This document shows, piece after piece, positions 1 to 12,296 of a stretch of DNA of 42,811 nucleotides (positions are counted from its first letter, which is position 1; each line of letters opens with the position of its first letter). Both the position numbers and the translations under genes were made by a program. The notes beneath the pieces are model-generated. The model was not told the DNA's origin and ran no database searches. It was given only the letters and a program-made list of their open reading frames with translations. Source of the DNA: a virus (taxonomy: Duplodnaviria; Heunggongvirae; Uroviricota; Caudoviricetes); IMG/VR virus record IMGVR_UViG_3300013126_000013. One strand, written 5' to 3'.

Positions 1-113
1 TGTTCCATAAAGATTCGAAGATCCTCTTTGCTTTGAATATTGTTAGTCACAAGTAAAGAATGATTTTTGAGTAGGTTTGAATGTTCTTCAATTAGCGCTT
101 TGTTGAGCTTCAT
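1..113 (-). CDS. 5' part of a DUF3050-like (heme-oxygenase-like fold) protein, truncated by the window edge; not in the ORF track
   Basis: ATG at 113 with AAGGA upstream. Reads MKLNKALIEEHSNLLKNHSLLVTNNIQSKEDLRIFME(H/Q)..., resembling the DUF3050 N-terminus (L..H.L...I...EDLRIFMEH). Overlaps the end of the upstream rSAM gene. Confidence 0.55.
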   Translation of the reverse strand, partial: MKLNKALIEEHSNLLKNHSLLVTNNIQSKEDLRIFME

Positions 114-1443
114 TTCTTTTCCTTAATCCATTAATATATCTTCGCATATAATCTGTTGGTTCTGGTACATGTTTCATCACAACTGGTTGCCCAAAAAGCA
201 ATTGAAACGCGTGAAGTTGAATATTCCCCCACCAAACTTTTTCGAGAGCGCAATTAGAATAAAATACATGATCAGGAAACTTAATTGGACAAGAAGATCT
301 GCACAAGCGTTTCACTGGGCACTTCATGCAATGATTCTTCTTGCGTAGGATGTCCATACCCTTAATTTCTACCTTTGTCACATCTTCAAGACGACCGGCA
401 ATAAAGCTTCCATCTGTATGCGGACACAAGCGAACATTACCTTGAATATCAACTGATAAAATGTCGTTTGAGTCTGCGCCACATCCAGACTTTGTAGTGA
501 TAGGTGTGGCTCTTTTCAGAAACTTTGCGTATTCAATAATGCCTTCTTCTGAATACACTACGTTATTCTTTAAGAATCTTTTTCGCTCGATGTCAAGCAA
601 AGACTCTTGAGTGAACTGAAAAAGATGTGAAGCAAAATCTTTTAGTTTCTCTCCACGAAGAATATAATTTGACGAAGCTTCACCTGTATCGTGTACATCG
701 TAATTCTTTGCAGGAATAAACGTGATCTTCATGTATTTCTGGTCAACATCATTCGATTTACAAAAGTCCATGAAGTAATCATTGATTGCATAGAGGTCAT
801 GATTCTCGTTACTTACAACTGTCGAGAATCCTAACCCTACGTTTGGGAGACCTATTAGCTGCTTGACAACGTCGACTTTCTTTGAATTCTTCAGTATGTC
901 TTCTCCACGCAGTTTCTCTTGTCCAACTGCATCGTGTGAAAGACTAATGAGTACTCTTGCTTTTAACGATCGAAAGAAGTCAACGTGCTTTTGTACAAAT
1001 GCTGACCCATTTGTTGAAATAAAGAATTCACGATCAGGCGAATCGAAGAAAGACATAATGGCAACCATATCTTTCCAATAAAGAAATGGTTCACCTCCCC
1101 AAAGTTCTACTCGATGAAGTCTTTCAAGATTGAGACTACGCTGGACGTTTGTTATAAACGTCTCTGTGTAAATAGACTGTGGTCTTTCGAGCGGATTTCC
1201 AATATCCTTTTGCATGCAATATGTGCAGTTATAGTTACATGCATGACCCAGCAGAATTCGAATAGCAATTGGATTGTTTACTTTACTTGTAACACCATGA
1301 TTCTTTTCTTCTGCTTCATAATACGAAAGATTCCGCTCTGGAGGCAGGTTTAGTTGATCACCTAGAGTGTTAAATAACTTATTGTTATGTGAGTCATAAT
1401 AGAAAGATGTGCCATCTTTCAGTTCATAGTATTGATAATCCAT
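88..1443 (-). CDS. Radical SAM/SPASM-domain protein (451 aa)
   Basis: CNYNCTYC cluster motif, WGGEPF motif, and SPASM cysteines CGADS..VDIQGNVRLCPH..CMKCPVKRLCRSSCP..C. Confidence 0.92.
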   Translation of the reverse strand: MDYQYYELKDGTSFYYDSHNNKLFNTLGDQLNLPPERNLSYYEAEEKNHGVTSKVNNPIAIRILLGHACNYNCTYCMQKDIGNPLERPQSIYTETFITNVQRSLNLERLHRVELWGGEPFLYWKDMVAIMSFFDSPDREFFISTNGSAFVQKHVDFFRSLKARVLISLSHDAVGQEKLRGEDILKNSKKVDVVKQLIGLPNVGLGFSTVVSNENHDLYAINDYFMDFCKSNDVDQKYMKITFIPAKNYDVHDTGEASSNYILRGEKLKDFASHLFQFTQESLLDIERKRFLKNNVVYSEEGIIEYAKFLKRATPITTKSGCGADSNDILSVDIQGNVRLCPHTDGSFIAGRLEDVTKVEIKGMDILRKKNHCMKCPVKRLCRSSCPIKFPDHVFYSNCALEKVWWGNIQLHAFQLLFGQPVVMKHVPEPTDYMRRYINGLRKRNEAQQSAN

Positions 1444-1823
1444 TATGCGAGTAGGTCATCCCATGCATGACTGTGTGATCGAAGTAGTTCAACCTTATTT
1501 CTCATATCAGTATAGTGATCTGCCGTAATAGTTCCGCCAGCAGAAAACGTTGTAGTAACATTTGTAAAACCTGACACCGTGGACACGGTGTCAGTCGTAG
1601 AAACAGTTCCGGGCGAAGCTAAGTTACCAAATTCTTTAATCTGGCTATAATCTGTAAGCGTATGAGTGTGAGCGCCAACTGCGTTAATGAAGTCTTTTAA
1701 CATGGTGTAATGCGCAGCTTGCACCGTATTACCAGAAGCTACTTGCGCTAACAGTGGTGTTGTATAAGTTGTACGAAGAGATAGAGCTGGGCTTATCGAT
1801 GTTGTACCTGCTACTGCCGGCAT
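1443..1823 (-). CDS. Small Thr-rich protein (126 aa) with two HxH-ending repeats; candidate rSAM substrate or fibre-tip module
   Basis: SD AAGGA; TAATG coupling to the downstream rSAM; internal repeat at G31-D58 and G96-D123; no Cys. The ORF is well supported, the function is inferred. Confidence 0.75.
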   Translation of the reverse strand: MPAVAGTTSISPALSLRTTYTTPLLAQVASGNTVQAAHYTMLKDFINAVGAHTHTLTDYSQIKEFGNLASPGTVSTTDTVSTVSGFTNVTTTFSAGGTITADHYTDMRNKVELLRSHSHAWDDLLA

Positions 1824-1833
1824 GTTTAAATCC

Positions 1834-2979
1834 TTATTTAAAACTTATTATAGGAGCCGGATCGCCTGATGGGAAGTATAAACCAACCTCTGTTCTTCGG
1901 TATCCTAGCTCTATAAGCTTGTGATAGTATTTCGAGTTTTCGCTTAACATCATCTTTGGTATAAAGTTGAATTCTCTATTCACTACAAATGTATCTACTG
2001 TATTTATATAGTAGTCTCTAAATTTTTGAGCAGTAGCGTCTAATGCTGGTTGTAGCTCTTGAAAGAAAGAGCTATATAATTTAAACTTTCCGTCGATCAT
2101 ATCATACATAAACGCTCTATGATCAAAGTCGCCGTCCATAGTGTGGAACGGTTCCCAATTTATGTCTGTTGCGTCATCAATACTATAGAAGAAACGATCA
2201 CCATATAAGTGAAGTGATCCACGGTAGACCTGATATGTTCTATCATTATAACACAACACGTGGCTATTTTGATAATCAAACAGACCCTGTAGATCATGAT
2301 CAGCATTGCCTAATTCGTTATCTTTAACACTTCTCTTTCTATAATCGTTATGAAGAGACGTTACAATACCTTTATCGTTTATCCATTCAACGAGCTCTTT
2401 TGCGTGATATGGTAATTCTGTTTCTGTGGTTTTGATTACCTTGACTTTATGCAAATCGTATTTGTGAATATAATCTTGCAGTATCTCAATGATCTTGTTG
2501 TAGTTTTTCTTTGAGTTTACTTTGTTCATAAACTCTTCACTCAACGCAACTTCAGATAATCCTTTCATGTTAAGTTCCATGAGAGTTTTATGTTGCTTTA
2601 TGAGAGCATTATCAGTCATACCATATTCGAACGTAGAAGCATGTTCTTTATACCAGGAATAGACGTACGGATAGTTTTCTTTGAGGTACAATAAATCGTC
2701 GACGACTCTGATAACATAGAAGTAACTGAAAATCTCGTACCAACGCTTTTCTTCTTCAGCTGTTATCTTAACTGGCACAGCGCTTGCATAATATGGTAGG
2801 TGCTGATTTAGCTTTTGTTTAATATAGCAGACCTGACAATTTGCTCCACAATAATATTTGTTAGTGGGACTAAATGTAATATCATGATCTAAAGGTGCTA
2901 ATGCATCTTCAGTTATGAAGTATGCGCTATTATCTTTGAATTTTCTAAATTCTTCACCGGTGTAACTACTCATATCCAA
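1834..2979 (-). CDS. Divergent radical SAM protein (381 aa) without SPASM domain
   Basis: CGANCQVC (CxxxCxxC) near the N-terminus; no GGEP motif and no C-terminal Cys cluster. Confidence 0.65.
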   Translation of the reverse strand: MDMSSYTGEEFRKFKDNSAYFITEDALAPLDHDITFSPTNKYYCGANCQVCYIKQKLNQHLPYYASAVPVKITAEEEKRWYEIFSYFYVIRVVDDLLYLKENYPYVYSWYKEHASTFEYGMTDNALIKQHKTLMELNMKGLSEVALSEEFMNKVNSKKNYNKIIEILQDYIHKYDLHKVKVIKTTETELPYHAKELVEWINDKGIVTSLHNDYRKRSVKDNELGNADHDLQGLFDYQNSHVLCYNDRTYQVYRGSLHLYGDRFFYSIDDATDINWEPFHTMDGDFDHRAFMYDMIDGKFKLYSSFFQELQPALDATAQKFRDYYINTVDTFVVNREFNFIPKMMLSENSKYYHKLIELGYRRTEVGLYFPSGDPAPIISFK

Positions 2980-4063
2980 TCCAATGCAATAACGTTGGTT
3001 GCTGTTTTAATTTATGTAAATGTCTAACCATCAGGCTAATCGTTTTGTAGAAGTCAACACACTTGCCTCTAGGTTCTTCTTCAAACATGTGATACAAATA
3101 CTTTAACCCGCAAGCATCTCTCAAGTCACAAGTTTGGCATCCAGGCAGTATAAAGTCTTCTTCACTTTTTACGCGGTCGAGATACTGTTGACCTCTCCAT
3201 CGACCTACTCGAAACTCTTTTCTCTTATACTCAAGATAATCAAACTCCGGATATAGATAACCGTCTGGTGATAGAATTAACTTACCATGATTGTTCAAGT
3301 ATTGCTTATCTATCTTATCGTAATTACCATCGATATTCAGGTTGATTCCTTGAACGTAGAGAGAATGAATAAATCGCATTAGGTAAATACTATACCACTT
3401 TATGTCAAAGTCGTCAATCAATACTTTAAACTTTTGCTTTCCTCGATGATGCCGAAGAGGAATCAAATTTACCGTGTCACATCTACTTTCTTTACACGCG
3501 CTTATTACGGCTGAAAGAGTGTGTTCGTTGAACCCATCCGGCGGGCAAACAAATTGAAACATGAGATAACAATTGTTTCTGTACAAGACATCGGCTAGAC
3601 CCTTTAGATCGATCTTTTCACGATTGATTTCTTGATAATTGAAGTCATAGCTCAATGTAATATGTATGTGGTTCCACTTTTGAAAGAACCATTCATTCTC
3701 TACAATTAACGAACCGTTTGTAGTGATGTAATATTCAACGCTATCACCAAAAAGTGGATGAAGCAACTCCATGAGCTGGTCAATTCTCTTAATGTAGAGA
3801 AATGGTTCTCCACCATGAAAAGATATTGCTTTCAATTCTTTTGCGTGTTCTTTTGCGAGAGTCATAAATTTAACGATCTCGTCAAAGTCACGCTTTAACA
3901 AGTTTTGAGAACCGATCTCATCGCGAATATAGGCTCTATCACAATACACACAGTCGAAGTTGCAGAAGTCTCCGAGGTATATTGTAATTGCTTTTATTCC
4001 AGTAAAGTCGCGAGACTTGTCTTGTTGATTGAGTTCTGTTTGAATATGATGGTCGATATGCAT
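2966..4063 (-). CDS. Radical SAM protein with partial SPASM/twitch-like C-terminus (start may be GTG 4078 or ATG 4063)
   Basis: CNFDCVYC, FHGGEPFL, YYITTNG, LSPDGYLYP, CQTCDLRDAC..C. Confidence 0.88.
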   Translation of the reverse strand: MHIDHHIQTELNQQDKSRDFTGIKAITIYLGDFCNFDCVYCDRAYIRDEIGSQNLLKRDFDEIVKFMTLAKEHAKELKAISFHGGEPFLYIKRIDQLMELLHPLFGDSVEYYITTNGSLIVENEWFFQKWNHIHITLSYDFNYQEINREKIDLKGLADVLYRNNCYLMFQFVCPPDGFNEHTLSAVISACKESRCDTVNLIPLRHHRGKQKFKVLIDDFDIKWYSIYLMRFIHSLYVQGINLNIDGNYDKIDKQYLNNHGKLILSPDGYLYPEFDYLEYKRKEFRVGRWRGQQYLDRVKSEEDFILPGCQTCDLRDACGLKYLYHMFEEEPRGKCVDFYKTISLMVRHLHKLKQQPTLLHWIGYE

Positions 4064-5637
4064 TGTATGTAATAACACTTCACTATGTGAGAGTCAGGAT
4101 GGAATGTGAATTCTGGATAGCCATACGTTTTTGCTAGTATGTTGTATAGTTCTCTCAGATCTTTTGCCCCGAGCCACTCGTACATGATTTCCTCTGGCGT
4201 TTGAAGATCATTTCTGATCGAGATATAATGATCAAACATATCTTGACCCATTACATTTCCGCCAAGCGCTTCTCGAAAGAACGTTAACTCTGCTGACATA
4301 ACTTGTGGGCCAAGTTCTTCTAAGCGCTTGGCTCTCTTCTTTACATGTCGCATAAAGATCTTCTTACTTACGTCAGTTTGAAAATCAACGTATAGCTTCA
4401 CAATCTTTTGGCACATATCATCCGGTCTGAATATTCTTGATCCAGTATCAAGATTTCCTGCAGGGCATTGATAACATGCATTCTGATAATCACAAGTTCT
4501 GCACTGTTCCTCGGTTTGGAACATTTCATTATAAGCATTCTGAAAAGTCTTATAACGATCTACATATACTTTATCTTGAATCACATTTCCAAGTACAGCA
4601 ATGTCAGCTCCGTTTGATTTCTGATTTGTAAAGAAGTAACACCCTGAAAAGTCACCCGATGCATCAATAGCAACCATGTGTGAACCAACCATACAGTTTG
4701 AATCTTCTTTTTGGCCAACGCCTTCAGAAAACTTAATGTATAGATCATCGTACATTTCAAGAGCATTGAAAATCTTCGATCTCATCGATTGCCAGTTTTC
4801 TTCTTTCCAAGAAATAAACCCATGTTTTGAATCAAGCACGAGAGGATGCACAACCATATTGCGCACACCAAGAGAATACAGCTCGTCGATAAAGTTACCC
4901 ATGTCACGACTTGTTTCTTCGGAGAGTGTAGCACGAATTACAACTCGCATAGGATCATCAACAGTATCAACTGCTTTCTTGATTACTCCTTTCAGCTTGT
5001 TCATTTGAGCTGGAGTAATTTCACGATGATCGATAGTCGAATTGAAAGTATCAAGACTAATCATCATATGAGTGTATGACTTACTAAAATAGAATTCTGT
5101 AAATTCATCGTTCAGCAAAAGTCCGTTTGTACACATCGAGATATATGTGCCACGGTAATCACTATAATTTGAACTGAGTTCTTCGTCGTATGTTTCGATA
5201 AATTCTTTGATCAAAGGTTTATGAATCAGTGGCTCACCACCAAAGAATTGAAACACTTTCTTCTGGCCGTTATTACGGGAATTCATCCAATCATAAACTT
5301 GCTTTAGTGATTCTTTTGTAAACCGCCCAAAGTCTTTATTATGTTGCTCATAGCAATAAGAGCATGCAAGATTGCATGCATTCGTAAGCATTGCATTTAC
5401 TTGCACAAGATCCTTGAAAAGAACCTCTGCTTCAGAAAATGGAACTGCTGCTTCTTCGGACTTGGGAAGAACTGTGATGAGCTTATTAGATTTTTGACCT
5501 TTACTGGAAATGTTAATAGTTTCAACGGTGGTATGAAGAGTTCCTTCTTGGTCAATAACGGAAGGAGTATGATTTTTTAATCTGTTCTTTTGTGCTTCGC
5601 TTAAAACTCTTTTCACATTCACATAATTATCTGACAT
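3994..5637 (-). CDS. Radical SAM/SPASM peptide-maturase-like protein (547 aa)
   Basis: CNLACSYCY, FFGGEPL, CTNG; SPASM CMVG..IDASGDFSGC..CRTCDYQNACYQCPAGN..C; ATG directly abuts the stop of the 63-aa Cys-tailed peptide. Confidence 0.92.
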   Translation of the reverse strand: MSDNYVNVKRVLSEAQKNRLKNHTPSVIDQEGTLHTTVETINISSKGQKSNKLITVLPKSEEAAVPFSEAEVLFKDLVQVNAMLTNACNLACSYCYEQHNKDFGRFTKESLKQVYDWMNSRNNGQKKVFQFFGGEPLIHKPLIKEFIETYDEELSSNYSDYRGTYISMCTNGLLLNDEFTEFYFSKSYTHMMISLDTFNSTIDHREITPAQMNKLKGVIKKAVDTVDDPMRVVIRATLSEETSRDMGNFIDELYSLGVRNMVVHPLVLDSKHGFISWKEENWQSMRSKIFNALEMYDDLYIKFSEGVGQKEDSNCMVGSHMVAIDASGDFSGCYFFTNQKSNGADIAVLGNVIQDKVYVDRYKTFQNAYNEMFQTEEQCRTCDYQNACYQCPAGNLDTGSRIFRPDDMCQKIVKLYVDFQTDVSKKIFMRHVKKRAKRLEELGPQVMSAELTFFREALGGNVMGQDMFDHYISIRNDLQTPEEIMYEWLGAKDLRELYNILAKTYGYPEFTFHPDSHIVKCYYIQCISTIIFKQNSINKTSLATLLE

Positions 5638-5829
5638 TTAGATGCTGCCTCGAGAACAGTTACACTGACAGTTCGAAGTATAGTCATCACTAAACGTATG
5701 GCTGTGCTGAATTAGCGCATCAAGCACATCAACCATCTGTCGAAAAGATGCTGCGTCAATGGTCTGCCCAGTCGTCTTCGCTGTAGTGGATCCAGCTGCG
5801 GTGAATGTGCTTGTGTTATCTGCAACCAT
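5638..5829 (-). CDS. 63-aa candidate precursor peptide with HSH motif and C-terminal NCQCNC
   Basis: SD AAGGA; TAA-ATG adjacency to the 547-aa rSAM; shares a motif with the 126-aa protein. Confidence 0.8.
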   Translation of the reverse strand: MVADNTSTFTAAGSTTAKTTGQTIDAASFRQMVDVLDALIQHSHTFSDDYTSNCQCNCSRGSI

Positions 5830-5834
5830 GTTCG

Positions 5835-6842
5835 TTATCCTTTAGCTACGATAAATTCTATCTTATATTTGCCCGCAGTAGCAGTACGATCATACCTATT
5901 TATAATTGAATCTATATTGTATTCTAAGGTAATATACCCAAAGTGTCGAGTCGGATCTACATGTATTTTTCCGTCCTTCACTTTTACAGTTAAATTGGTT
6001 TTGATTTCTCTGTCAAATTTTATAGCGCTTCCGTACTTACCGAAGTATGTGCCGCCCTCGTACTCATGTATAGTAAACTGGGACGTAGTAAAGATTGTAT
6101 TTCTATTCACCATATACGCTCCAGAACCTTCAATTCTTGGCACTAAAAAATATTCTTCTACAGTAGCGTCATAGGCATCCATACTAAACACATGATGAGA
6201 ATTGTCATAAACGTTCGAATCAATACTGGGCATTGATACCAGATGCGGGTTGAGCACACAGATAACTAGTTCTTTGTTTTTCGTTCTTTTAAAAACACAG
6301 TACGTTACTGTGGCGATAGAAGCTAATCCGTCGATTGGATTGTTATCGCCACTTATGTTAATCACATTAAAATCATCGTCTCGAGCATAGTAATAAGATT
6401 TAGCCATCAGGGTTTTTTTGTTCATAGCGATATTGCTGAGTGGCGTTCCCAGTGCCACCCACGAATACTTTTCTAAATACTCATACACTTCATCAAGATT
6501 AATAACTCTACTGTTGTCTGGATCTAAGCTAACGCTTGGAGTCAAATATTCTTTGAGAATGAGTTGGCCCCTCGACTCGCCTACTTCAGTATTCATTCCC
6601 GAATTATTCGTTTCTATCACGTATTTAAATGATTCAGACTCAAACTGCTCAAGTACCGGCGCTTTCAGTGTATGAATACGTTCATCTTTTACTATATTGG
6701 CAAGTGAAGATCTTCCAGAATTAACTGGCATGTATAGTCCATTAAATGACCACTTATCACCGATGGCAAGATTCATTACATCAGTACAATTTTCCCAAAT
6801 AGGAGGTCGTCTTGACGCCCAAATGAAGGCCCAATTAATCAT
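5835..6842 (-). CDS. Hypothetical protein (335 aa) within the rSAM cluster
   Basis: Long ORF, ATGA overlap with the upstream gene, no recognised motif. Confidence 0.75.
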   Translation of the reverse strand: MINWAFIWASRRPPIWENCTDVMNLAIGDKWSFNGLYMPVNSGRSSLANIVKDERIHTLKAPVLEQFESESFKYVIETNNSGMNTEVGESRGQLILKEYLTPSVSLDPDNSRVINLDEVYEYLEKYSWVALGTPLSNIAMNKKTLMAKSYYYARDDDFNVINISGDNNPIDGLASIATVTYCVFKRTKNKELVICVLNPHLVSMPSIDSNVYDNSHHVFSMDAYDATVEEYFLVPRIEGSGAYMVNRNTIFTTSQFTIHEYEGGTYFGKYGSAIKFDREIKTNLTVKVKDGKIHVDPTRHFGYITLEYNIDSIINRYDRTATAGKYKIEFIVAKG

Positions 6843-7414
6843 AGTGACCTCATATATTCTATTATTTCTTCGGCTGAATTTCCATCAAAAAACACATCAA
6901 ATTTATCTTTATGACTTCTTAAAAAGTTCGAATAAGATTCTTGAAATAAATTTGCAGCTTCTTCGCTTAGATTTTCATGTGTTACAAGATGATCGATACT
7001 GCGCGGTGTTACCCATCCAATATAGGTATGAGGTACCTGAGGTCGATTGCCCGAATACGCAATAGGCAAAACAACGAGTCCATTTAATTCTTTATCTAAA
7101 TATGTGGTCGCTTCATACTTTAGAAATATGAATCGATTCATGTCATGAAAAGCTTCTTCAAAAAACTTTATGTATGATTCTTGGTCTTTAAAAGATTCGA
7201 AGACGTACTTATAGTTTCCGGATTTAAATGCATCGACGATATCTTTACTATATTTGTGATGTATCAAATTCTTTGTGATAATATCAAGAAAATACGCATC
7301 TTCCATGCAATATTGAATAAAATTATCGACATACCAAGGATTTACGCTATTACGTATTTTGTTGTTGACGTCGTCAATTTCAATATTCATTGCTAATACA
7401 ATTCTTTTTAGCAT
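6839..7414 (-). CDS. Hypothetical protein (191 aa) within the rSAM cluster
   Basis: Overlaps both neighbours on the same strand; no recognised motif. Confidence 0.7.
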   Translation of the reverse strand: MLKRIVLAMNIEIDDVNNKIRNSVNPWYVDNFIQYCMEDAYFLDIITKNLIHHKYSKDIVDAFKSGNYKYVFESFKDQESYIKFFEEAFHDMNRFIFLKYEATTYLDKELNGLVVLPIAYSGNRPQVPHTYIGWVTPRSIDHLVTHENLSEEAANLFQESYSNFLRSHKDKFDVFFDGNSAEEIIEYMRSL

Positions 7415-9435
7415 GGATTTACCTCTATTGTCTTAAACATTTTGTTTGATCCAGACACAGAACATAGTTTAATGAAATATCTGTTTACTCTCTCATTCAT
7501 GTCGTATTTATGCCAATCAATGTTGTGATGAAGGTCTGTGTATGTTTTATCCAATGGAGTATTAACATATGTACCTTTGATCAAATTTTCCGACATCCAA
7601 TCATATTCACTTATGAATTGTGTAGGATTATCGGGATTATAATCAATCCACTTAACAGAATTGATGCTCCAGTTAACTAGATCATCGAGCTTCTCATCTT
7701 CTCCAAACTCGTTTATGATCCAAGCCTTGACTGCTTGGTAAAATTTATGGCGATTGAGGTTGATCATGATGTTGATCAGAGCTGGCATCTTTGCGTACAA
7801 CTTCCATGGTAGACCATCTAGTCGATAGTATTCGAAGTTGATCGCACTTTTTTCCTTTACTTTCTCCTGAGCCTGCAGTATAATGCTATTAAGCACAGAA
7901 AATTGGATAGATTCTAAATAGTCAATGCTGATGAATGTCTTATAGAATCTCTGATAAAAAGTAGAGTGTGGTATACCGATAGAGTCTAAATACTGAGTAA
8001 TTCTGCGAAGGTAGCCTTCAGTCTCCATCGTGAAGATAATACCATCAGACACAAGCATCTCAACATAGTCTTCTCGAGTGTATGACATAGTAGCTACAAC
8101 AATCTTCGATGGCTGTACATACTCTGGTGCTTCGATAAGACCTCTTTGTTTGATCAAAGACCCACTCATCAGTACATCTTCACGAATAACGGCGTCTTTT
8201 GTAGATTCAGTTAAAGATTCAATCGTCTCGAGCTTAAACTTTTTGATGTAATCAGGATGTGAAGCGGGTGATGTTGGAAGAAGATGCCATGTGTATTTTT
8301 CCCAGAACACATTTAGCTTTGCCATTTCACCAGCTGCAAAGTAGTAGTTCTGCAGTGTGGTACCAGGAAGGCCTCGAATTAATTCTGCTCGAATCTTAAT
8401 GCCAAACTCTTCACGAAGTTCATTATAAGCTTTAAATTGCTTTTCCCACGGCTCATCAATTCGATCAATGTTTTTCAGGACTTGTGGATCCATGTCTTGC
8501 ATCGAGATCTTGAAACCAGATGATAGACCATGTTGAGCCATAAGTCTATCGATCTTGTATACGTTTGATTTCTTTGATTTGCTTAAACCAGCAAACACTA
8601 TTTCTTTTGGCGCGCCATATTTTGCTTTGAGCTCGCAAACATACTCCATGATTTCTACATCGCGATCAAGCTGACCGAGGTTTGCTTCGACCATGTGTAA
8701 GTCTTCTAGAGCGCCATTTTCTGCAAGCCATGTTAAGTCTTCAATAATATCTTCAGTTGGACGAAATGAAACCTTTGAGTTGATTCCACCGCTCCACTCG
8801 CAGAACGTGCATCCATACGGGCATCCGCGATGAGTTTCGTAGATAGCCTGAAGCGTTACACCTGGAATGCGATTATCGATCACATCTTTGATATAGTATT
8901 TATTACGTTCAAAGATTTTCTTTGGCCAAGTAAATAAACGCTTGTTAAATACAACAGACGAAGTGATATAACTATCGTCCTTCGCCATCACCATAAATGG
9001 GACTTTCATCCAATCTTTATCAGTCTCTATTTGATAGAGCAATTCGTTTATGAAAGGCTCTCCATACCCATCAGTTTGGCACGTAAAATCTATGTACGGG
9101 TATTTCTTAAAATAATCTGGGTCTTCCTTATATTCACAATAAGGACCACCGAATGCAATATGAACGTAAGGTCTAATTTCTTTAATTAGCCGAGCTACTT
9201 CTCGAGACAATCCTACATTCCATACATAGACGGAGAATCCCACAAGTGTAGGATCTTTTGACAAGATATCATCGACAAGTTTATGAACGTCATCCGCTCT
9301 TGAAGAAGAAATTGGGTAGTGCCAATTCCACTTAGCACTACCCTTATAATTATCTTCTACATATGATTTAAACGAAAGCCATGCGTAGTCATATACATTA
9401 TCGCGTATGGTGTAATTTACATAAACAAAATTCAT
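7408..9435 (-). CDS. Cobalamin (B12)-binding radical SAM protein, class B methyltransferase-like (675 aa)
   Basis: N-terminal B12-binding motif LVGFSVYVWN...HIAFGGP followed by ETHRGCPYGCTFCEW; SD AAGGA. Confidence 0.9.
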   Translation of the reverse strand: MNFVYVNYTIRDNVYDYAWLSFKSYVEDNYKGSAKWNWHYPISSSRADDVHKLVDDILSKDPTLVGFSVYVWNVGLSREVARLIKEIRPYVHIAFGGPYCEYKEDPDYFKKYPYIDFTCQTDGYGEPFINELLYQIETDKDWMKVPFMVMAKDDSYITSSVVFNKRLFTWPKKIFERNKYYIKDVIDNRIPGVTLQAIYETHRGCPYGCTFCEWSGGINSKVSFRPTEDIIEDLTWLAENGALEDLHMVEANLGQLDRDVEIMEYVCELKAKYGAPKEIVFAGLSKSKKSNVYKIDRLMAQHGLSSGFKISMQDMDPQVLKNIDRIDEPWEKQFKAYNELREEFGIKIRAELIRGLPGTTLQNYYFAAGEMAKLNVFWEKYTWHLLPTSPASHPDYIKKFKLETIESLTESTKDAVIREDVLMSGSLIKQRGLIEAPEYVQPSKIVVATMSYTREDYVEMLVSDGIIFTMETEGYLRRITQYLDSIGIPHSTFYQRFYKTFISIDYLESIQFSVLNSIILQAQEKVKEKSAINFEYYRLDGLPWKLYAKMPALINIMINLNRHKFYQAVKAWIINEFGEDEKLDDLVNWSINSVKWIDYNPDNPTQFISEYDWMSENLIKGTYVNTPLDKTYTDLHHNIDWHKYDMNERVNRYFIKLCSVSGSNKMFKTIEVNPC

Positions 9436-9443
9436 TTTATTCC

Positions 9444-12296
9444 TTATAGGATAACAGCCTCTACCATTAGCGATCCATCTTCAAGAGCAATTGCGAATGA
9501 CCAGGCACTTCTGCCGTTGTCCACATGCGCATAACCCGGAGTAGTTGAAGGAGCTAGTCTGTCGCCCTTCTTGCAGCCACCGATTACTTTAACCGGAACG
9601 CGACCCTTCAGAGCGATTGCTGTACCACCTTCTAGATCACTGTTCATGAGATAAGCCGGCTTTTCCGAAACCACACCTAGCACTGCATGTGCATTATTAA
9701 CATCCGCCGCGGTTACTTCTGCTGAACCGCCGACAGCAATTACTGTACCGACTTCATAGTCTTGATCTGCAAGATAGTTTTCTGCAAGGTCAGCGTACTG
9801 AGCAGTTGTTGCAGTACCGTTAAATGTGGTAGCAAACACCGTTGCAAATCTAAGTGTAGACGAACCTAAGTTATAAACGTTAGTCGTATCTGGCAATGCG
9901 GATCCACTATAGCGAAGTGTTGGGAATGTCTTCGTACCAGAGATTATTTGTGTACCTGACGTGCGTACTACTGTTTCATCTACTGTAAAAGTTCTATTAG
10001 CTGATAGATCACCACCTCCAGCTAAACCATCTCCTGCTGTGACACTTCTAGATGTTCGAACGATTGTAGTAGGAATTCGTGCATCATCCACATTTCCGGA
10101 TGTGATATTTGTGCCATTAATATTAGTAATAGCAGAACCAATACCAGCAAATGATACCGCCGTAATCGTATTCGCAGCGAAGTTACCAGAAGCATCACGG
10201 GCTACAACTTTTCCAGCAGTTGCAAGGTTAGTTGCATCCACATCCCATGTTACTGCTGCTGAACCGTTGAAGTTTGATCCGGTAAGATAAGCTCCAGCGG
10301 TATGTGCTTGGTTCGTATTTGCGGTGACTGTTATATTAGCCGAACCGTTGAAACTTACACCGTTAATCGTTCTTGCAGTAGCAAGAGTCGTTGCTGTCGT
10401 GGCGTTACCGACAAGATCTGCAGTGATTGTGTTTGCAGCAAAGTTACCAGAAGCATCACGGGCTACAACTTTTCCAGCTGTAGAAGTTGTGGTAGCATCA
10501 ACCGCCCATGTAGTTGCAGCTCCACCGTTGAAGTTTGATCCAGTGAGATATGTACCACGAGTAAGAGTGTTTGGTGTATTTGCCGTAATTGTGATTGCTG
10601 CAGAACCATCAAAGTTAACACCGTTTATCGCGCGGGCTGTAGCAAGAGTTGTAGCCGTTGAAGCATTTCCAACCAGAGCTGCAGTGATAGTATTTGCAGC
10701 AAAGTTACCTGAGGCGTCGCGAGCTACGACCTTCGAGGCAGTAGAAGTTGTAGTAGCATCAACAGCCCAAGTAGTGGCTGCTGAACCATCAAAGTTGGAG
10801 CCGGTAAGATAAGTACCACGAGTAAGAGTGTTATTCGTATTCGCTGTTACGGTAATATTTGCAGAACCGTTAAATGATACACCATTGATCGTACGAGCAG
10901 TTTGTAATGTAGTAGCGGTAGATGCATTACCTACCAGTGCTGCGGTTACGGTCGTTGCAGTAACCGTATTGGACGTTACATTATTTGCAAATACCCTATT
11001 CCAGCGCATCAAGTCAGAGCCTACAGAATAAGAAACGTTTGCAGTAGGAATCAATGATGAGCCAACATTACTTGTAGTAACTGTTATAACGTCAACAGTA
11101 TTGGCCGTTACATTATTTGCAAATACCCTATTCCAGCGAGCGAGATTCGATCCAAGAGAATAAGAAACGTTTGCAGTAGGTAACACGTCAGTATCAAATC
11201 CGGCACTTCCAACAAATGACATCGTATTTGTCACGTTAAAATCGTGTACATCAGACGAACTTACTACAAGTGTAACGTTCGATGAGAAATAAGATGTTCC
11301 ATACACATACAAGTCACGGCGTATAATCATGTCACGATCAACTTCAGCATCGACCTGAATGTTAACACTGTTTGCAACATCGAGATCTTTTACCCAAGCT
11401 TTATTCCAAGTGGCAGAACTTGAACCAATATTGTATGTAGTTGTAGTATCCGGAAGTATGCCTGTCGAAGATACTATAAGAGGTGTCACTGTAGCTGAAG
11501 TATTCGCGAGACTTAAATTGAGCGAGTATAGAGTAGAGTTTGTACTTTGTGTCTTAATAGTTCTTGCACTTGTGCCCTTTAATCTAACTTCATCTGTAGC
11601 CTCAAGAGCTGTTACTGTTGTGTTAGATCCGGTAAATGCAGCATTTGCAGTTACAGTGAGAATACCGTCGATATTTGTGTTTGAATTAAAATCAGCTAAG
11701 CTATTTACTACAAGAGAATCTGACGCGTTGAAGCCAAGAGTAATTACGTCGACGTTAGCATTTAGCGAGGCGGCAGTTACTATTGTATTTGAAGTAACAT
11801 CAAAGGTTGTACCGTCAATATCAACGCGAGTGCCAGTGAATTCCGAATTCGTACGTACAAACAATTGACCTGCGTTGATGGTCGTATTTGCTGCAGAAAT
11901 TAAGACCGTCTTTGTCGAATCAATTGCTACGTTACTCGTAAATGTTGTATTATTCGAGTTAATCGTAAAGTTATCGGTGTTTGCCGAAATGCGAACAAGG
12001 GGTGATTCAGAAAAGATAGTATTTGAAACTATTGTTAGGTCACCACCAGTACTTACCGATCCGCCTCTGAGTCTATTCGATACTACAACTGTATTCGCTG
12101 AGAAGATACCTTCAAGATGAGCGTTACCAGTAGTGTATCCACCAACGGTTACGTTTGGCTGTGGTTGCGTTACCGAAGTGAGTACTACAGTTCCCATATC
12201 GTATACGAGAGAGTTGGTAGTATCGACCCATGAAGCAAAAGTATCTGTTGCTTCAACGTTCGCACCTGCAGCTAAATAGATGTGTGCCTTTGCCAT
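9444..12296 (-). CDS. Tail fibre (950 aa) with tandem repeats and a C-terminal peptidase G2-like intramolecular chaperone
   Basis: N-terminal TDTF..W...TN motif; T/A/N/V/G-rich; P...Y.lGS...W repeats; C-terminal YADLAENY...GVVSEKPAYLMN...ALKGRVPVKV. Confidence 0.85.
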   Translation of the reverse strand: MAKAHIYLAAGANVEATDTFASWVDTTNSLVYDMGTVVLTSVTQPQPNVTVGGYTTGNAHLEGIFSANTVVVSNRLRGGSVSTGGDLTIVSNTIFSESPLVRISANTDNFTINSNNTTFTSNVAIDSTKTVLISAANTTINAGQLFVRTNSEFTGTRVDIDGTTFDVTSNTIVTAASLNANVDVITLGFNASDSLVVNSLADFNSNTNIDGILTVTANAAFTGSNTTVTALEATDEVRLKGTSARTIKTQSTNSTLYSLNLSLANTSATVTPLIVSSTGILPDTTTTYNIGSSSATWNKAWVKDLDVANSVNIQVDAEVDRDMIIRRDLYVYGTSYFSSNVTLVVSSSDVHDFNVTNTMSFVGSAGFDTDVLPTANVSYSLGSNLARWNRVFANNVTANTVDVITVTTSNVGSSLIPTANVSYSVGSDLMRWNRVFANNVTSNTVTATTVTAALVGNASTATTLQTARTINGVSFNGSANITVTANTNNTLTRGTYLTGSNFDGSAATTWAVDATTTSTASKVVARDASGNFAANTITAALVGNASTATTLATARAINGVNFDGSAAITITANTPNTLTRGTYLTGSNFNGGAATTWAVDATTTSTAGKVVARDASGNFAANTITADLVGNATTATTLATARTINGVSFNGSANITVTANTNQAHTAGAYLTGSNFNGSAAVTWDVDATNLATAGKVVARDASGNFAANTITAVSFAGIGSAITNINGTNITSGNVDDARIPTTIVRTSRSVTAGDGLAGGGDLSANRTFTVDETVVRTSGTQIISGTKTFPTLRYSGSALPDTTNVYNLGSSTLRFATVFATTFNGTATTAQYADLAENYLADQDYEVGTVIAVGGSAEVTAADVNNAHAVLGVVSEKPAYLMNSDLEGGTAIALKGRVPVKVIGGCKKGDRLAPSTTPGYAHVDNGRSAWSFAIALEDGSLMVEAVIL
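10164..10946 (-). repeat. Three tandem 261-nt (87-aa) repeats in the tail fibre
   Basis: Units start at 10946, 10685 and 10424: TA(A/D)LVGNA.TATTL.TAR.INGV.F.GSA.IT.TANT...KVVARDASGNFAANTI. Confidence 0.95.
10960..11190 (-). repeat. Two 44-aa-spaced (132 nt) repeats in the tail fibre
   Basis: PTANVSYS(L/V)GS.L.RWNRVFANNVT twice; 33-nt identical block starting at 10974 and at 11106. Confidence 0.9.

Follow-up and report, generated by a model that had tools for sequence, protein, structure and literature searches.

A helix-HxH module present in threes in two small proteins encoded among radical SAM genes beside the tail fibres of a T4-like phage

The stretch of DNA analysed here (the window; 42,811 nucleotides of IMG/VR record IMGVR_UViG_3300013126_000013, Caudoviricetes) was apparently assembled from lake water and covers the part of a T4-like phage that encodes its baseplate and tail fibres, with PHROG matches to gp5-, gp25-, gp6-, gp7- and gp8-type proteins, to a 1819-aa structural protein and to a 950-aa fibre. 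Downstream of the fibre gene lies a tightly packed operon, on the minus strand throughout, encoding proteins of 675, 191, 335, 63, 547, 370, 381, 126 and 451 aa in this order, followed by the start of a DUF3050/haem-oxygenase-like gene. Several of these are radical S-adenosylmethionine (SAM) enzymes. We describe a module of ~30 residues, consisting of a helix and a His-x-His (HxH) motif, that is shared by the 63-aa and 126-aa proteins, and consider its relation to the neighbouring enzymes; we favour a structural role for it.

The 63-aa protein (5638..5829, minus strand, as are all window features below) carries one HxH module, of class s (G21–D48; 5686..5769; 64 bits with the module profile A3), and a Cys-rich C-terminal tail, YTSNCQCNCSRGSI (Y50–I63; 5641..5682). 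The 126-aa protein (1443..1823; phrog_31780 match) has an N-terminal helix followed by two modules, of class c1 (G31–D58; 1650..1733; 62 bits) and class c2 (G96–D123; 1455..1538; 54 bits). The two proteins belong to families of 29 and 33 clusters, respectively, in metagenomic phage contigs. An AAGGA Shine–Dalgarno sequence precedes both genes, and each is translationally coupled to the next radical SAM gene through TAAATG and TAATG junctions. The 63-aa gene lies directly 5′ of the gene for the 547-aa radical SAM/SPASM enzyme (3994..5637; Pfam Radical_SAM and SPASM), while the stop of the 126-aa gene overlaps the start of the gene for the 451-aa radical SAM/SPASM enzyme (88..1443; Pfam Radical_SAM, SPASM domain TIGR04085 at cut-off).

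The first-pass annotation of this DNA had aligned the three 28-residue stretches as copies of one motif; both open reading frames (ORFs) and all boundaries proved exact, and the likeness of the copies goes beyond chance. In BLASTP, the 126-aa protein matches the 63-aa protein with E values of 6e-6 (copy 1) and 6e-4 (copy 2), and hhalign relates the two families with 96.5% probability (E 1e-9, 39 columns). H52, H54, H117 and H119 of the 126-aa protein and H42 and H44 of the 63-aa protein are invariant across the families. When 65 distinct module copies, cut from every family member, are aligned, the two His are the only invariant columns; the Gly, Ala and Asp columns are at least 90% conserved, and the residue following HxH-x is F, L, W, Y or I. 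Across 14 window proteins (~9,900 aa) HxH occurs five times, of which three fall in the modules and two in the 370-aa enzyme; no fibre or baseplate protein of the window has one. Neither Pfam nor the PDB holds a relative of the module. When the PDB was searched by profile and by sequence for the module and for a bacterial triple repeat described below, only chance-level rows came back, a Foldseek search of the 126-aa monomer model against the PDB gave no fold match, and an ESM Atlas search with the 126-aa protein gave weak leads only. We found no publication describing the small proteins or the module. The HxH module is real, conserved and undescribed.

We scanned all fetched loci with a hidden Markov model of the module (profile A3). 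Exactly three HxH modules are present in each of 11 aligned contexts (the window, RP12, L005, L008, L009, L013, L020, L022, L023, P0144 and P0157), which range from T4-like metagenome phages to the Ralstonia jumbo phage RP12. They are divided 2+1 between two proteins in nine contexts and lie in a single chain in the other two. A profile search of 1.84 billion representative proteins gave 210 matches at E ≤ 1e-3. Sorting the 150 matches listed, together with a 50-aa ORF of L008, we found among the matches listed 64 two-module proteins, 8 single-module proteins with Cys tails (for example CQCQCQCDC, CDCQCQC and CNCNCAC, then xRG[ST][ILV]) and 2 three-module chains. These chains, P0144 (221 aa) and P0157 (230 aa, locus L018), both run c1-c2-s, the first without a Cys tail and the second with the tail CACNCNCNC; judged by their sequences, they are Rosetta-stone fusions of the two window proteins. 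IMG/VR scans with profiles A1 and A2 retrieved close relatives only, and scans with P0144 and P0132 retrieved none.

In a tree of 33 modules drawn from the 11 contexts, modules of like position group together rather than those of one genome. The tree requires 7 label changes, compared with 16.2 on average after shuffling, and none of 200 shuffles was as low as 7. One tree group, the s class, holds 10 of 11 modules, including the third modules of both fusions. Sequence features specific to each class agree: c2 has an Arg two residues ahead of the first His (R-x-H-x-H) and s reads H-x-H-x-F-x-D-D-Y. Because the modules cluster by position with agreeing class-specific features, the triplication is old and has been maintained.

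The AlphaFold2 (AF2) model of the 126-aa monomer is of moderate confidence (predicted local distance difference test (pLDDT) 76.7, predicted template modelling score (pTM) 0.67). It places a helix at residues 11–29, the module-1 helix at 36–50, a hairpin at 53–61/74–81 that begins at the first HxH, and the module-2 helix at 101–115. Predicted together, the 126-aa and 63-aa proteins form a complex with an interaction score from aligned errors (ipSAE) of 0.68, against 0.01 for the best control. Of 80 solved complexes, 58 reached the mark used for this score, as did 2 of 110 mismatched pairs, a calibration that is only rough here, as the alignments are our own. Contact agreement between runs is at least 75% and the pLDDT of the partners at least 61. 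No similar complex has been solved, and the pass of the heterodimer is therefore not owed to a known structure.

The lowest-error contacts pair equivalent module positions (residues 45/46 and 111 of the 126-aa protein with residue 36 of the 63-aa protein, and residue 42 with residues 32/33). In the predicted heterodimer, the module helices form a parallel, in-register bundle, which the N-terminal helix of the 126-aa protein also appears to join, as contacts of its residues 20–25 with residues 30–37 of the 63-aa protein suggest. The predicted interface holds H52, H54, H117 and H119 together with the 39–48 stretch of the 63-aa protein, which contains H42 and H44. The interface helix and strand of the 63-aa protein are predicted at residues 24–48, and its Cys tail (54–58) lies outside the interface. 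In the model of the monomer, HxH opens a strand; within a strand, alternate residues face one side, and such an arrangement builds the His6 sites of T4 gp37.

Across contexts, the number of radical SAM enzymes varies from 0 to 5, whereas the number of modules is fixed at three. Two contexts show modules alone. In L008, there is no CxxxCxxC ORF and no relative of the window enzymes within 20.7 kb; a 240-aa protein, encoded after a short fibre-like gene, comprises two HxH modules and an extra C-terminal domain, and the 50-aa ORF supplies the third module, stopping at ...HTHNYSDD with no Cys tail. On the P0144 contig, the 17 genes shown include no radical SAM gene, and the fusion lacks a Cys tail. 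Every context with a Cys tail also has a radical SAM gene, and tail and enzymes co-vary. Where the 451-type enzyme is the sole radical SAM enzyme retained (L022), the single-module protein has one Cys in its ..DDYTTACGG end; where the 547- and 370-type enzymes occur alone (L018/P0157), the fused protein ends in five Cys; in full cassettes the tail has three to five. The DDYTSNCQCNCxRG tail is invariant within the 63-aa family, and the 126-aa protein contains zero Cys.

PapB ranthipeptide maturase is the best NCBIfam match of the 547-aa enzyme (NF047865; 122 bits over the full model length, below the cut-off of 340), followed by a CXXX-repeat-target maturase and QhpD (73 bits, cut-off 453), all below their cut-offs. 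Three further enzymes complete the set: the 370-aa radical SAM enzyme (2966..4078; Pfam Radical_SAM, phrog_1802 match), found alongside the 547-aa orthologue in L018; a 381-aa radical SAM-like protein with a CxxxCxxC motif, CGANCQVC (1834..2979; phrog_36229 match), with orthologues in RP12, L005, L009 and L020; and a 675-aa B12-binding radical SAM enzyme that is C-methyltransferase-like (7408..9435; Pfam B12-binding and Radical_SAM), with a KedN5-type NCBIfam match of 132 bits, below cut-off. In L002–L004 (~5856-7109, 8139-9995), orthologues of the 547-aa and 381-aa proteins align only partially, and gene calling yields fragments of 169, 123 and 101 aa; both enzymes may be decaying there while the small proteins stay intact. 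We rejected a His-Xaa-Ser system (HxsA–D): HxsB reaches 40 bits (cut-off 370) and HxsC 25–28 bits (cut-off 268), and the small proteins bear one or two HxH rather than the HXS repeats of such a precursor.

Cultured phages also carry the cassette. In the Ralstonia jumbo phages RP12 and RP31, an unannotated 65-aa ORF, ending in HTHVFYDNYGSNCNCNCACTRGSL, is orthologous to the 63-aa protein; in RP12 it lies between ORF074 and ORF075 (L001:9932-10129; AP017924.1 ~82888-83085). Its RP12 neighbours are ORF074 (125 aa, two HxH modules), a 295-aa protein, orthologues of the 547-, 370-, 381- and 451-aa proteins and a DUF3050 protein, and the cassette directly follows two fibre-like proteins. The RP12 enzymes had been listed as isolated annotations (PMC5468394). 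Both phages were found through the 63-aa protein and the enzymes only: a tblastn search of GenBank phages with the 126-aa protein and a megablast search of the same phages with window positions 1–9500 gave no match.

Several T4-like metagenome contigs carry the cassette as well, with varying gene order and usually flanked by very large fibre-like genes. Some larger phage proteins (P0111, P0132, P0204 and P0206) start with a two-module domain and continue into C-terminal domains that vary, a layout typical of modular receptor-binding proteins. P0204 (L020:10001-11356), itself 451 aa long, has two HxH modules at its N terminus, and its long C-terminal extension contains a possibly Hint/intein-like stretch, CCFPADSFVLMDDGKW. 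Three fibre-like genes of L008 (3726-4466, 5722-6999 and 9249-9974) have a common N-terminal YTLNWTD...NYGE..QEN.L.LLENFA domain, and the third (9249-9974) directly precedes the two-module HxH protein of that locus.

A triple tandem repeat at the C termini of many large bacterial surface proteins (with FG-GAP, SBBP beta-propeller or fn3 domains; for example P0159, P0179, P0131, P0099 and P0102) matches the module in its helix half, without HxH. Pfam has no family for this repeat, which reads G-x-x-I-[KR]-A-x-H-[LIV]-x-E-L-R-x-A-[LV]-N-x-x-R. The phage and bacterial forms have the helix half up to this Asn in common and a number of three. Unlike the phage module, the bacterial repeat lacks HxH and a radical SAM context and stands in tandem within one large cellular protein. 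It again points to a three-unit fold.

The remaining genes of the region add context. The conserved 335-aa cassette protein (5835..6842), with orthologues in several loci, is predicted to be all-beta and Ig-like: its AF2 model (pLDDT 84, pTM 0.85) has confident beta-sandwich-type domains, and a fold search returned no enzyme fold, only generic Ig/PKD-like matches that were weak and of low TM. The conserved 191-aa protein (6839..7414) has orthologues in L002, L005, L009 and L013 and no match in family searches; ESM Atlas searches with the 335-aa and 191-aa proteins found nothing. The DUF3050/HamA haem-oxygenase-like gene, recognized from its translation, starts within 1..113 and runs off the window edge; a PF11251 gene occupies the same place in L002, L020 and L023, as does ORF080 in RP12. 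Immediately upstream of the cassette, the 950-aa tail fibre protein (9444..12296) matches PHROG tail fibre families. Its C-terminal ~120 aa (AQYADLAENY...GTVIAVGG) resemble the self-cleaving chaperone ends of some fibres, and in L005 the upstream 1762-aa protein carries Peptidase_S74. The metagenomes that best match the window are from lake water and may be the source sample itself. In a freshwater metatranscriptome, short contigs are ~95% identical to parts of the cassette, although contigs from RNA libraries cannot show transcription. One of 326 nt, also ~95% identical, spans window positions 1414–1739, from the 3′ part of the 126-aa gene into the beginning of the 451-aa gene; this hints, without proving it, that a relative is transcribed.

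We propose that the helix and HxH motif form a structural, probably metal-binding, pseudo-threefold unit built by both small proteins, and that the Cys tail is the target of the radical SAM enzymes; we put the probability of this reading at roughly 55%. Each module would be made of an amphipathic helix and, after it, a short strand bearing His-x-His, three per phage, with two modules and a preceding N-terminal helix contributed by the 126-aa protein and the third module by the 63-aa protein. In a 1:1 complex of the two, the three module helices would run parallel and in register, and the three HxH strands, with six His, would converge on one probable metal site. The tail of the 63-aa protein, DDY-x-x-x-CxCxC-xRG[ST][ILV], would project from this core as the likely substrate of the adjacent PapB-like radical SAM/SPASM enzyme. 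PapB ranthipeptide maturases form Cys–Asp/Glu thioethers, and the tail would probably receive thioether cross-links, with other enzymes tailoring it further. The product would not be a released peptide but would persist as a small protein complex in modified form, probably in association with the tail fibre apparatus. QhpC and QhpD offer a precedent, in which a radical SAM/SPASM enzyme puts Cys thioether links in a small protein that stays in a complex and is not released; unlike in that system, there is no dehydrogenase context here, and the small proteins are dissimilar.

The count of three, the positional clustering, the predicted heterodimer and the persistence of the module where radical SAM genes are absent argue that it is a structural unit and not primarily a leader for these enzymes. 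We also count in support of a structural character that the cassette comes without peptidase or exporter, includes an all-beta 335-aa protein and sits between fibre genes. More tentatively, and with a distinctly smaller chance of being right, the cassette may build a part of the virion: a heterodimeric mini-protein with a His6 metal centre, its tail cross-linked and methylated by the phage radical SAM enzymes, carried by the tail fibre to serve as adaptor or adhesin.

The first-pass annotation had offered two readings of the motif, one of them a common leader or recognition element for radical SAM enzymes, and had looked to conserved His residues and radical SAM neighbours among homologues. 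The His are indeed conserved and most homologues do have such neighbours. In its fullest form, this reading would make the small proteins precursors of peptides that are ribosomally synthesized and modified after translation (RiPPs), with each radical SAM/SPASM enzyme docking on a module and a modified peptide, possibly released, as the product. The gene arrangement is what this would lead one to expect. Both small genes lie directly 5′ of, and coupled to, radical SAM/SPASM genes (63-aa with 547-aa, 126-aa with 451-aa), an arrangement kept in RP12 and in metagenome loci; radical SAM genes occur in 8 of 10 distinct context types; three modules stand beside three phrog_1802-type enzymes; and the cassette is RiPP-like in its PapB-like enzyme, its B12 C-methyltransferase-like enzyme and its haem-oxygenase-like protein. 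A Cys-rich core that co-varies with a maturase, however, is found in the 63-aa protein only, and the module is not strictly tied to a maturase, being kept, as 2+1 or three in one chain, in L008 and the P0144 contig, where no radical SAM gene is seen, and constant at three while enzymes vary. The c2 copy cannot lead a core peptide, because only three residues come after it. Two His as the sole invariant residues would be unusual for a leader, a confident folded heterodimer is predicted, and Pfam, PHROG and NCBIfam searches detected no peptidase, exporter or transporter, or PqqD/RiPP recognition element (RRE) domain in the cassette. The link to the enzymes is thus real, but it runs through the CxCxC tail, and we consider it unlikely that the module is chiefly a leader, though it may also act in enzyme docking as a secondary role.

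The comparison with the ranthipeptide/SCIFF systems (PapA/PapB) divides in the same way. As in those systems, a short Cys-rich sequence stands directly 5′ of a radical SAM/SPASM enzyme, PapB being its best match, and the tail tracks the enzymes. The phage tail differs in being CxCxC rather than CxxxD or CXXX repeats, and the phage system differs in that its N-terminal folded module exists without the enzymes, that no peptidase, exporter or RRE was found, and that it is phage-encoded, beside fibres.

The other earlier reading, a trimerising, metal-binding fibre module, was partly right in its threefold idea, which the count of three, the two fusions and the predicted heterodimer alter to a probable 2+1 hetero-assembly; the module does not lie within a fibre protein and has no detectable sequence relation to gp37, gp12 or any solved structure. 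As in the T4 gp37 tip and gp12, three HxH motifs would be brought together so that six His could bind one ion, in a phage system encoded with fibre genes. The T4 motifs, unlike those here, belong to a homotrimeric, long beta-structured fibre with several sites along its axis, whereas the phage module is a helix with one HxH in a predicted 2+1 complex. The proposed geometry would be analogous to that of the T4 His6 sites, not homologous. Each small protein could instead form its own homotrimer, and HxH would then sit on a genuine threefold axis within a fibre or its tip. The HxH motifs of the T4 gp37 tip coordinate iron (PMC11705849), and the cassette adjoins fibre genes. Yet the constant three modules, the three-module fusions and the positional clustering indicate one hetero-unit, a homotrimer of the two-module chain would hold six modules, the heterodimer passes its controls and solved fibres show no relation in sequence or fold, which together make separate homotrimers improbable.

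We give little credence, too, to HxH (with the following F/L/W) as a site of radical SAM chemistry, such as a His-centred triceptide/cyclophane-type cross-link made by the 451-aa and/or 370-aa enzymes: His-cross-linking radical SAM enzymes are known (for example the HtkB HisC2-to-LysC-beta link; PMC11499958), the gene of the 126-aa protein, which lacks Cys, is coupled to that of the 451-aa enzyme, and the 370-aa and 451-aa enzymes weakly match cyclophane maturases (YhhB, XyeB and AmcB) and cross-linking maturases (WgkB and DynA), respectively, but those matches are far under the family cut-offs and no better than generic radical SAM matches, HxH is equally conserved in contexts free of radical SAM genes, and the residue after HxH-x is not consistently aromatic.

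Several observations weigh against the structural, pseudo-threefold unit that we prefer. The modules adjoin radical SAM genes in most contexts, with each small gene in the window coupled to one, and both contexts free of such genes are incomplete, one covering ±10 kb of a 65-kb contig and the other 12.8 kb of one of 24 kb. As the 126-aa protein has no Cys, a Cys-tail substrate leaves the role of the 451-aa enzyme unexplained. The complex score expresses model confidence and comes from our own alignments, and homologous amphipathic helices may be packed together by default. Finally, gel-band mass spectrometry of the RP31 virion lists no cassette protein (PMC5468394 Table S3); this result is uninformative, because the gel-band method also failed to pick up the fibre-like neighbours and its database did not include the 65-aa ORF.

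The system combines two known kinds, the HxH metal sites of phage fibres and the small proteins tailored by radical SAM/SPASM enzymes. For RP12 and RP31, the annotation is corrected by the addition of the 65-aa partner gene. Should our reading be true, an undescribed fold unit would be defined, a helix with HxH occurring in threes, whose helix half is common to many bacterial surface proteins, and the natural split between a folded handle and a modifiable Cys tail would be useful for studies of substrate recognition by SPASM enzymes. Marine T4-like viral genomes have been noted to carry many unexplained radical SAM genes (PMC5332604); several of those in marine and freshwater T4-like phages would gain a concrete, testable substrate. 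Beyond 'auxiliary metabolism', phages would apply RiPP-type radical SAM chemistry to their own small structural proteins, and, if the tentative adaptor or adhesin reading also holds, this would be the first structural protein of a virus to owe its maturation to radical SAM chemistry.

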